A stretch of DNA of 29,705 nt from Armatimonadota bacterium (GCA_043814095.1 JBDRKI010000038.1:1-29705); one strand, 5' to 3'. Positions 12,731-13,587 are shown, counted from the first letter of the stretch. Numbers and translations: made by a program. The notes: a model not told the origin generated them from the letters alone.

Positions 12731-13587
12731 CAAATTAAAGGCGCTTGGCAGTTTATTCGTCTAGTTGGTGAAAATCCAATCTTGGTATCAGTGATACCTT
12801 AGTAGCAGCGGACAGGACAGAGCAGGGTAACCGTCTGTCTGAAGGGTCCTTATGCGAAAGGTAGCTTGAACACAAAAAACAGTTGGTCGACCTATGTGTG
12901 TACTATAGGGAAGACCCGTTGAAAAAACTGGTTCGAGATACCCGAAAGAGATGAATAAATGACCCAAGGAGATCCCGGAAGAGATGAATCGATTAAAAAA
13001 CTCTCCGGGAAGTCAGCTGACTCATAATAGCCGATTCGTCGGCAAAGGAGAAAGCCTATGATAGAAATATCACCTGAGAATGTTAGCGGTTTTGTAGTTG
13101 GTGAAGGGTGCTTTTACGTAGAAAGCGGTTTTGATAAGAAATACAAATTAAAACACAGAATTCGCCCCGCATTTTGTATAGAGGTTAAGGCAGAAGATCG
13201 AGAAATACTCGAAGCCATCCGTGATATTTTGGGATGCGGCAAAGTTTATGAATTAGACTTTGGACGATACCAGGGGTATCAGGATAAGAAATGGAAACCT
13301 CATGTAAAATACAGGGTAAGTAATCAAGCCGATTTAATACAGAAAGTAGTCCCGTTTTTTGAAAAATATCCGCTCTTTGGAAAAAAACTGGAAGCTTTTA
13401 AAGTTTTTAAAGAAATTTTAAAAGGGCTTTCAAAAGGAGAACAAAAAACTCCTCAAGGACTGGAAAATTTAAAAAAAACAGCCAACCAGTTGAAAACTGT
13501 TAATAAAAAGGGAATCTAGGACTCGCCGGATGCGCGATATGTGCTTGTCCGGTGGGGATGGAAACATCGATTCAATGGAATCCAAAT
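12731..13587 (+). mobile_element. Group II (IIC-like) intron in 16S rRNA at E. coli position ~1396, LAGLIDADG-encoding
   Basis: Removing 12731-13587 restores TTGTACACACCGCCCG. DV CTCGCCGGATGCGC..GTGCTTGTCCGGTGGG (13522-13556, CGC triad). DIII GAAGTCAGCTGACTCATAATAG. EBS loop GTGTGTAC 12896-12903. Ends in AT. Confidence 0.9.
13058..13519 (+). CDS. Single-motif LAGLIDADG homing endonuclease (16S intron, domain IV)
   Basis: VSGFVVGEGCF motif, RIRPAFCI, LGCGKV, VVPFFEKYPLFGKK; AAGGAG RBS. Confidence 0.93.
   Translation: MIEISPENVSGFVVGEGCFYVESGFDKKYKLKHRIRPAFCIEVKAEDREILEAIRDILGCGKVYELDFGRYQGYQDKKWKPHVKYRVSNQADLIQKVVPFFEKYPLFGKKLEAFKVFKEILKGLSKGEQKTPQGLENLKKTANQLKTVNKKGI

Follow-up and report, generated by a model that had tools for sequence, protein, structure and literature searches.

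A LAGLIDADG-encoding group II intron in a bacterial 16S rRNA gene and its restructured domain VI

Does an intron in the 16S ribosomal RNA (rRNA) gene of a bacterium end without a branch-point domain VI (DVI), with two small hairpins standing in its place? The question is raised by a contig of 29,705 nucleotides (JBDRKI010000038.1:1-29705) from an assembly deposited as Armatimonadota bacterium (GCA_043814095.1); this whole stretch is called the window below. Its 16S gene holds an 857-nt insertion at positions 12731-13587. A previous interpretation made from the nucleotide sequence (here, the sequence-only reading) had noticed the two hairpins directly after domain V (DV) and had proposed that they replace DVI, that splicing proceeds by hydrolysis or circle formation, and that the second hairpin may be an extra 3' domain; its author did not recognize the intron as part of a described family. 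The insertion belongs to the described family of LAGLIDADG-encoding group II (IIC-like) introns located at positions 1396/1398 of bacterial 16S genes, of which it is an additional member in a new host lineage. Alignment with its relatives indicates that the family's DVI has not been replaced and is still represented, in a degenerate form, by the 31 nt after DV. The loss of branch points has been described before for introns of this kind (PMC13190283, PMC4424553, PMC4748821).

The window carries an rRNA operon, with the 16S gene from 11351, the 23S gene at 13996-17768 and the 5S gene at 17855-17971. The match to 16S is broken after ...CCUUGUACA and is picked up again at CACCGCCCGUC, and the insertion in between sits in the universally conserved 1392-1406 strand of the decoding centre. 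Counting along this conserved strand, the site is presumably A1396/C1397 in Escherichia coli numbering. From the window alone, the intron borders are ambiguous by the dinucleotide CA, and it is homology that fixes them: in the homologous loci L002 and L007 (L numbers are our locus labels), the junctions are unambiguous, with the 5' exon ending in GUACA and the intron ending in AAU, followed by CACCGCCC. Based on these junctions and on the 1396-type features of the window described below, A12730 was taken as the last base before the 5' splice site and U13587 as the last base before the 3' splice site. The features on which the assignment to the family relies are as follows.

12731-13587, plus strand: complete intron (857 nt), a ribozyme of group II that carries a LAGLIDADG open reading frame (ORF) in domain IV (DIV)
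12726-12730, plus strand: intron-binding site 1 (IBS1), GUACA, the final five nucleotides of the 5' exon (up to E. coli A1396), complementary to UGUAC in the loop that holds exon-binding site 1 (EBS1)
12731-12738, plus strand: 5'-terminal linker, CAAAUUAA, 8 nt, upstream of AGGCG (12739-12743)
12762-12875, plus strand: part of domain I (DI), matched by Rfam group-II-D1D4-4 with 32.6 bits (E 2.4e-5), short of the gathering score of 49, conserved in homologues
12891-12909, plus strand: EBS1 hairpin, stem CCUAU/AUAGG, loop GUGUGUACU, with EBS1 UGUAC at 12899-12903
12993-13050, plus strand: region of the joining segment J2/3 and domain III (DIII), Rfam group-II-D1D4-1, 22.4 bits, E 0.13, threshold of 35 not reached
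13058-13519, plus strand: LAGLIDADG homing endonuclease (LHE) ORF in DIV, 153 aa, single motif, Pfam LAGLIDADG_1 E 1.7e-20
13588-13597, plus strand: start of the 3' exon, CACCGCCCGU, from E. coli C1397

The relatives used for comparison were recovered by a profile scan built from a 30-sequence LHE alignment (a scan of genome contigs with the single LHE sequence returned nothing), which led to 15 genome loci and 71 metagenome loci. The 16S context is uniform in all loci that reach the junctions, and 45 loci with distinct 5' regions have both 16S junctions in an identical 16S context. Within this context two site types, 2 nt apart, are found: one with GUACA before the intron and AAU followed by CACCGCCC at its end (1396), the other with GUACACA before the intron and AAU followed by CCGCCC (1398). 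In 44 of 45 distinct introns, the EBS1 motif corresponds to the site type: it is GUGUGU in all 24 of the 1398 type and GUGUAC in 20 of the 21 of the 1396 type, with GUGUAU as the exception (compare, for instance, L004, L005 and L014 with L002, L007 and the window). Given that the loop of the window's EBS1 hairpin (12896-12904) contains GUGUGUAC and that its 3' junction reads AAU followed by CACC, the window holds a 1396-type intron. The stem of this hairpin is also predicted by alifold from 25 homologues, and the block GAAGUCAGC...AUAGUAGCCGA...UCGGCAAAGG of J2/3 and DIII is strongly conserved in homologues. The DI-DIII core as a whole is conserved across the 25 homologues, with a partial alifold structure, and both Rfam D1D4 matches are sub-threshold.

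The published "rns-1396" family is described as consisting of group IIC introns with a single-motif LAGLIDADG endonuclease in DIV and, according to the available text, no EBS2; its members all carry a 5'-terminal linker, and starting inside a linker instead of at GUGYG is a known deviation of this family (PMC13190283). The window intron likewise starts with CAAAUUAA and not with GUGYG, and the GUGYG-like AGGCG 8 nt inside probably corresponds to that motif. In all 25 aligned 5' regions (25/25), a linker with at least four A-rich nucleotides lies between the exon and the conserved xGCGCC-GGCAG block. The IIC-like DI (no IC2) and the missing EBS2 are attributed to the window from the published description of the family (PMC13190283) rather than from a DI model of the window itself. 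At the other end, each of the 46 distinct sequences closes with AU, before which stands an A (39 sequences) or a G (seven), and the window ends in AAU.

Some observations on the intron ends can be added. Some 1396-type introns, that of the window included, begin with CA, as if the site had moved by two bases. The word CAAAU stands at both ends of the window intron (12731-12735 and 13583-13587) as a direct repeat, not a complement, with no evident function, and many relatives likewise have an (N)AAU word at both ends. When the 5' linker was inspected by eye against the DVI loop and the 3' tail, no pairing was seen.

To decide what the intron's 3' end is, the DV and DVI of the family have to be described. 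A total of 45 distinct segments from DV to the exon were aligned with MAFFT, a covariance model comprising DV and a putative DVI was built, and 46 distinct matches were re-aligned to it; 97.1% of the cells of the model are paired over these 46 sequences. The model (R1) recognizes the DV-DVI region of the window with 69.7 bits (E 5e-14) and that of the Thiotrichaceae copy L002 with 83.4 bits.

13522-13556, plus strand: DV, with a 10-bp lower helix, the CGC triad at 13524-13526, a UU bulge at 13545-13546, a 4-bp upper helix and a 5-nt loop

The CGC-type triad is a group IIC feature, and its middle G is in a G.U pair. For the 14 pairs of DV, 99.2% of the cells are paired, and six pairs show double changes. 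The DVI of the family has a basal helix of 4 bp and an inner helix of 3 bp, with a single A bulged out at position -8 from the 3' splice site, and is followed by AAU; this arrangement is present in 40 of the 45 distinct homologues. Its helix is paired in 92.8% of the cells, changes on both sides are found in seven of seven pairs, none of 500 shuffles equalled it in covariation score and the paired share falls to 34-40% in slid controls; the DV and DVI covariation figures lean toward the structure, since the alignment was fitted to our own model, a bias that has to be counted against the interpretation proposed below. The DVI covariation is also plain in the raw MAFFT alignment.

When the isolated segments comprising the joining segment J5/6, DVI and the tail were folded for the 46 sequences, the minimum free energy (MFE) structure of 33 contained a single A bulged out at a distance of exactly 8 nt from the 3' end, and seven more had this bulge within 1.5 kcal/mol of the MFE. 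The -8 column of the alignment is an A in 43 of the 46. Six sequences have no such bulge (the window, L029, L032, L042, L066 and L070). In L042 (1455-1527, also in L043), the bulge position is a U and is paired, giving an uninterrupted 8-bp DVI helix of -12.8 kcal/mol, so that the branch-site bulge has been lost cleanly and independently in this relative. On a tree of 25 hand-picked 5' regions of ordinary length, from which L032 was left out as its locus has no 5' region, the five bulge-less rows need five changes, at least three of them forced by well-supported branches; the losses are thus recurrent and independent. The window is an exception within its family and not the rule. The corresponding structures in the window are listed here.

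13557-13568, plus strand: hairpin 1, GAUG-GAAA-CAUC, in the MFE structure, comprising J5/6 and the 5' strands of the DVI basal and inner helices
13569-13582, plus strand: hairpin 2, GAUUC-AAUG-GAAUC, in the MFE structure, formed from the loop and the 3' strands of DVI, with A13580 paired to U13571
13559-13584, plus strand: homologous DVI fold, with basal helix UGGA (13559-13562)/UCCA (13581-13584), inner helix CAU (13565-13567)/AUG (13575-13577) and a 7-nt loop
13563-13564 and 13578-13580, plus strand: DVI internal loop, AA opposite GAA (2x3)
13580-13580, plus strand: homologue of the branch A, at -8 from the 3' splice site

The sequence-only reading was accurate as to what is visible here. 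The DV hairpin ends directly before hairpin 1, the two hairpins follow one another, and after them comes the tail CAAAU (13583-13587) and then the exon, CACCGCCCGUC. For positions 13557-13587, RNAfold gives the two hairpins as the MFE structure, with -7.9 kcal/mol, a frequency of 0.967 and a probability of at least 0.98 for each pair, and the same fold is kept in the context from DV to the intron end. Neither hairpin helix has a bulge, so the earlier remark that a bulged A is missing from both is borne out in the predicted fold, and a single-nucleotide bulge is found neither in the MFE structure nor in any suboptimal fold within 1.5 kcal/mol.

The family, in turn, speaks for a DVI at the same place. 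The stretch from DV to the 3' splice site is 31 nt in the window and 24-31 nt in the 45 homologues, so no sequence block has been added. The nearest ribozyme relative is L035 (67% identity, support 91/92 in the 25-row tree), whose DVI has UCGA/UCGA and CAC/GUG helices and a bulged A. The window has UGGA/UCCA and CAU/AUG instead, that is, two compensatory double changes, together with an AA inserted after the basal 5' strand and a GA inserted before the bulged A, and these insertions turn the single bulged A into the 2x3 internal loop. The homologous DVI fold of the window has -3.4 kcal/mol and an ensemble share of 0.0007, and is about 4.5 kcal/mol less stable than the two hairpins. Its register was set by eye on the family alignment, the placement by the covariance model being one base off (two of four basal pairs), so that the register is less objective in the window. 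An alternative pairing had been noted before as possible and weak, in the form GGAU/AUCC. Such a pairing does exist, in the homologous register one base away, whereas the GGAU/AUCC register would consume G13556, the DV partner of C13522 (C-G in 45 of 46 sequences).

Covariation in homologues, one of the checks that had been suggested, is seen for the canonical DVI. The two-hairpin pairing is confined to the window, and no MFE structure among the 45 homologues shows it; when transferred to the family alignment, its pairs are formed in 34% of the cells (29% for hairpin 1 and 38.5% for hairpin 2), the same as in the slid controls. Thus, of the proposal that the intron has no branch-point DVI and that two hairpins replace it, the part that holds is that the predicted fold has no simple bulged-A DVI. 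The replacement does not hold, as the same nucleotides align with DVI, which is retained.

How would such an intron be spliced? The assembly is 99% complete and has no 16S gene apart from this interrupted one, and the strand that is broken belongs to the decoding centre, so the intron presumably has to be removed, and we take it to be spliced. On balance, we lean toward a reading in which the family's DVI has been reshaped in this copy so as to favour the two hairpins, with water attacking the 5' splice site and a linear intron as the product. The intron would recognize its 5' exon through the EBS1-IBS1 pairing. The AA and GA insertions would have opened the bulge to an internal loop and created the competing two-hairpin fold in which A13580 is buried, and water, not the 2'-OH of the branch A, would attack the 5' splice site. 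The excised intron would be linear, with the 3' splice site still set by the conserved AAU tail located three bases past the basal-helix position, and spreading would happen at the DNA level through the endonuclease.

Such a course agrees with the literature. Recurrent loss of the branch point, perhaps accompanied by a change to hydrolysis, is described for LHE-encoding group II introns (PMC13190283), and group II introns without a functional branch point are reported to encode no reverse transcriptase (RT), some of them in homing-endonuclease-associated lineages (PMC4748821). According to the same source, branched products are as a rule not obtained from group IIC introns in vitro (PMC4748821), and fungal rRNA introns spliced upstream of GUGYG are reported to have lost branch-site motifs (PMC4424553). 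Lariat-free splicing by hydrolysis, as the sequence-only reading had it, is plausible since the predicted fold has no simple bulged-A DVI and A13580 is base-paired, in hairpin 2, and in view of the published branch-point losses; on this modelled structure it would be the most likely chemistry.

Several points weigh against this interpretation, beginning with the fact that the splicing chemistry is itself deduced from predicted folds. The hairpins are real as predicted structures and statistically unremarkable: 200 dinucleotide shuffles gave a mean of -3.89 +/- 1.88 kcal/mol (z = -2.13), a modest difference, with seven of the 200 as stable as the window, and the two-hairpin fold could be a by-product of drift. 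The compensatory changes in both DVI helices suggest that the canonical fold was, or still is, under selection, and A13580 stands exactly at -8, next to a basal helix whose four pairs are intact. Stacking of the AA/GAA loop in non-canonical A.A and A.G pairs, which nearest-neighbour energies would undervalue, could leave A13580 bulged in the manner of the relatives, and tertiary contacts of the ribozyme could outweigh the 4.5 kcal/mol. Moreover, as the family keeps a bulged A despite its universal 5' linker, the fungal rule that a linker implies hydrolysis is not simply transferable. Finally, the closest LHE relatives (P0002-P0004, 80-83% identity) are known as proteins, and the ribozyme comparison was made with more distant loci.

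These points lead to a possible, if in our judgement somewhat unlikely, alternative, in which a canonical-like DVI forms in the folded ribozyme, A13580 is extruded as the branch point and a lariat is produced, of which most of the relatives are presumably capable too, the hairpins being off-pathway or transient. Both helices have been retained relative to L035 by compensatory changes, the A at -8 is shared with 40 of the 45 homologues, the basal helix and the AAU tail have the geometry of the family, and the family's DVI is strongly covarying, hence functional. Lariat splicing has also been demonstrated for the LHE-encoding rns-952 (PMC13190283), so that a non-standard DVI need not exclude branching. 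This alternative has to contend with an energy of -3.4 against -7.9 kcal/mol and the minute ensemble share already given, and with hairpin 1, which is transcribed first and would need to be opened, a rearrangement that is required in no homologue. In addition, IIC-type introns seldom branch in vitro (PMC4748821), there is no RT or maturase to assist, and a lariat is not needed if mobility is DNA-based.

Much less probable is that the DVI region is decaying, with poor or no splicing, or that it is a metagenome-assembly error, and that the hairpins have no meaning. The genome is a metagenome-assembled genome (MAG) of 129 contigs, the two-hairpin fold is only modestly above shuffles, and public groundwater sequencing runs, one metatranscriptome of low depth among them, are of limited help at this place. 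Of the sampled words, 29% are present in one RNA run and 20% in one DNA run, and among the contigs of four runs, intron pieces were found at 12813-13013 (DNA) and at 12981-13155 and 13331-13478 (RNA), with a depth of about 3. Among these contigs there is no intron-specific cover of DV or DVI: none falls in 13506-13549, and 13550-13587 is covered only by the intron-less 16S of other organisms. Contigs that appear to join 12730 to 13588 were considered as evidence of splicing and rejected. These are short, highly abundant contigs matched at a likeness of at least 88% and are best read as the intron-less 16S of other organisms, which makes the joints uninformative on splicing here. Against decay or error stand the intact DV, EBS1 and AAU tail, an intact LHE ORF with all family-invariant residues, DVI helix changes that are compensatory and not random, the interruption of the universally conserved 1392-1406 strand in the only 16S gene of a 99%-complete assembly, and contigs that are 99-100% identical to other parts of the intron in one RNA run and one DNA run.

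Hardly any credence is left for the proposal that hairpin 2 is an added 3' domain, similar to a domain VII, or that the tail supports circle formation: some class B introns do bear such a 3' extension (PMC4424553) and L028, L034, L049 and L060 carry extra hairpins near DV, but the window gained no block (31 nt against 24-31 nt), the nucleotides of hairpin 2 align to the loop and 3' strands of DVI, the 3' splice site is at the family's usual position after AAU, and the extra hairpins of the relatives lie upstream (DV 3' strand to GGG) and not past DVI. The insertions in these relatives are of interest in their own right. In L028 (1032-1164), L049 (672-805), L060 (1465-1610) and L034 (1468-1580), 60-75 nt resembling two hairpins are inserted between the DV 3' strand and a conserved GGG, upstream of an otherwise canonical DVI, and the accessible portions of the literature on these introns hold no description of this type of insertion.

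The endonuclease of the window has 249 relatives at E <= 1e-5. Its ORF is intact and keeps all 34 invariant columns of the 30-sequence alignment. The copies from Thiotrichaceae and Thiomargarita (L002 and L003) have LHEs with 64-65% identity to that of the window, among its best matches. Target cleavage has been shown for I-ShaI, an LHE from an rRNA gene of the Candidate Phyla Radiation (CPR) (PMC11270868). By analogy, the mobility of the window intron would be DNA-based, via its LHE.

As for the hosts, the rns-1396 family is given, in the text available, from only four genera of Thiotrichaceae, and traced to Salman et al. 2012 (PMC13190283). For CPR 16S genes, a 2024 study describes group-II-like insertions only at about position 1400, with a LAGLIDADG ORF in 39 of 53 (PMC11270868). 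The titles of our genome loci name Thiotrichaceae, Ca. Thiomargarita nelsonii, Planctomycetia, Omnitrophica, Actinomycetota, Saccharibacteria, Doudnabacteria and Levybacteria. Judging by these titles and by sequence homology, the family is far wider than the published Thiotrichaceae-only range and extends to MAGs of several other phyla, to CPR and to the present, probably Armatimonadota-like genome. The host MAG (2.5 Mb, 129 contigs, 99% complete) is alone in its GTDB family and has one other genome in its order. A weak hint on its lineage is given by a pyrophosphate-dependent phosphofructokinase encoded on the minus strand at 22185-23480, whose nearest proteins (about 61% identity) are those of Fervidibacter/Armatimonadota. 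A search for the intron DNA in 60 relative genomes (one from the same order, 59 from the same phylum) gave a 26-nt chance match as its sole result, which does not imply absence, considering that rRNA operons are often unassembled in MAGs.

Some members of the family have no ORF. In an Actinomycetota locus (L011:24-437, about 415 nt), an ORF-less 1396 intron is found. The metagenome loci L056 (about 1-400) and L059 (about 1-317) also have an ORF-less 1396 intron, with a DV-DVI closely like that of L011. A related LAGLIDADG gene is situated outside the intron in these loci, several hundred bases downstream.

Compared with known systems, the window intron is closest to the rns-1396 introns of Thiotrichaceae, with which it shares the insertion site, the single-motif LAGLIDADG ORF in DIV, the 5' linker and the EBS1/IBS1 pairing (PMC13190283). 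It differs from them in its host, which is not a member of Thiotrichaceae and has one housekeeping protein that is, weakly, Armatimonadota-like. It differs also in its restructured DVI, whereas in L002 the bulged-A DVI is within 0.1 kcal/mol of the MFE (the L003 locus does not include the 3' junction). The window host, with its 2.5-Mb genome standing alone in a GTDB family, we take not to be a CPR organism. With the "16IS9" insertions of CPR at about position 1400, the intron has in common the site, the frequent LAGLIDADG ORF and the lack of an RT (PMC11270868), and the Saccharibacteria, Doudnabacteria and Levybacteria loci align with the window throughout the ribozyme.

The IIB1 introns of fungal mitochondrial rRNA genes are similar in their rRNA host, their LAGLIDADG ORF and a splice site upstream of a GUGYG-like motif; in the published accounts at hand, no EBS2 is reported for them, and some copies have lost the bulged A and are released by hydrolysis (PMC4424553, PMC4748821). 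They differ in the ribozyme class (IIB1 versus IIC-like) and in their mitochondrial instead of bacterial host, and, in contrast to them, the bacterial family has a 5' linker that coexists with a covarying bulged-A DVI in 40 of the 45 homologues.

Group IIC introns such as O.i.I1 resemble the window in their CGC-type triad. They are also alike in the short DI, in having EBS1 and EBS3 only, and in a lariat-free tendency, the splicing of O.i.I1 in vitro being hydrolytic (PMC4748821). Those introns are described as having a seemingly normal branch point, an RT and insertion sites after terminators (PMC4748821), whereas the window intron has an LHE, an rRNA site and an altered DVI.

Two further introns are present in the window. 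An RT-encoding group II intron, truncated at the start of the window, occupies the first 1,760 nt with its 3' part and has Rfam D1D4-3 and D1D4-1 matches; its RVT_1 ORF (289-1326) ends early, and maturase-like sequence seems to go on in another frame. The normal DVI that had been ascribed to it is indeed there: its DV and DVI, at 1691-1757, fold with a bulged A at 1754. The second intron interrupts the 23S gene at 16043-16786, at about U1917/A1918 of E. coli, which we take to be a known intron site. The exon reads ...AACUAU, the intron ends in G, and AACGGUCC follows. This intron encodes a LAGLIDADG_1 ORF of its own (16194-16691), matches Rfam group I below the threshold (16595-16743, E 1.5e-5) and is probably a group I intron.

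For annotation, the result means that an 857-nt insertion in the most conserved 16S strand is a described mobile intron and not an unknown element, and that its odd 3' end is best read as a degenerate DVI and not as a new domain, one more case of a documented trend. The family-level picture is the more useful lead. The family spans at least seven phylum-level labels and has kept a covarying bulged-A DVI in spite of the non-G 5' linker with which each of its introns begins, so that a conserved branch-site helix and a universal 5' linker go together with several independent losses, in at least five copies including that of the window, and a wide host range. We think it unlikely, though worth stating, that the family branches onto a linker nucleotide in vivo, or that the bulged A serves another role, and that the DVI of the window is a bistable switch between splicing chemistries. 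Branching onto the linker, if true, would contradict the fungal rule that the linker goes with branch loss. A bistable DVI, if true, would be a natural switch rather than simple decay: the two-hairpin state would sequester the branch A, favouring hydrolysis or delaying splicing, and the helix state would expose it. Taken as a whole, the family offers a natural series in which the dispensability of branching could be tested, once mobility has passed to a homing endonuclease.

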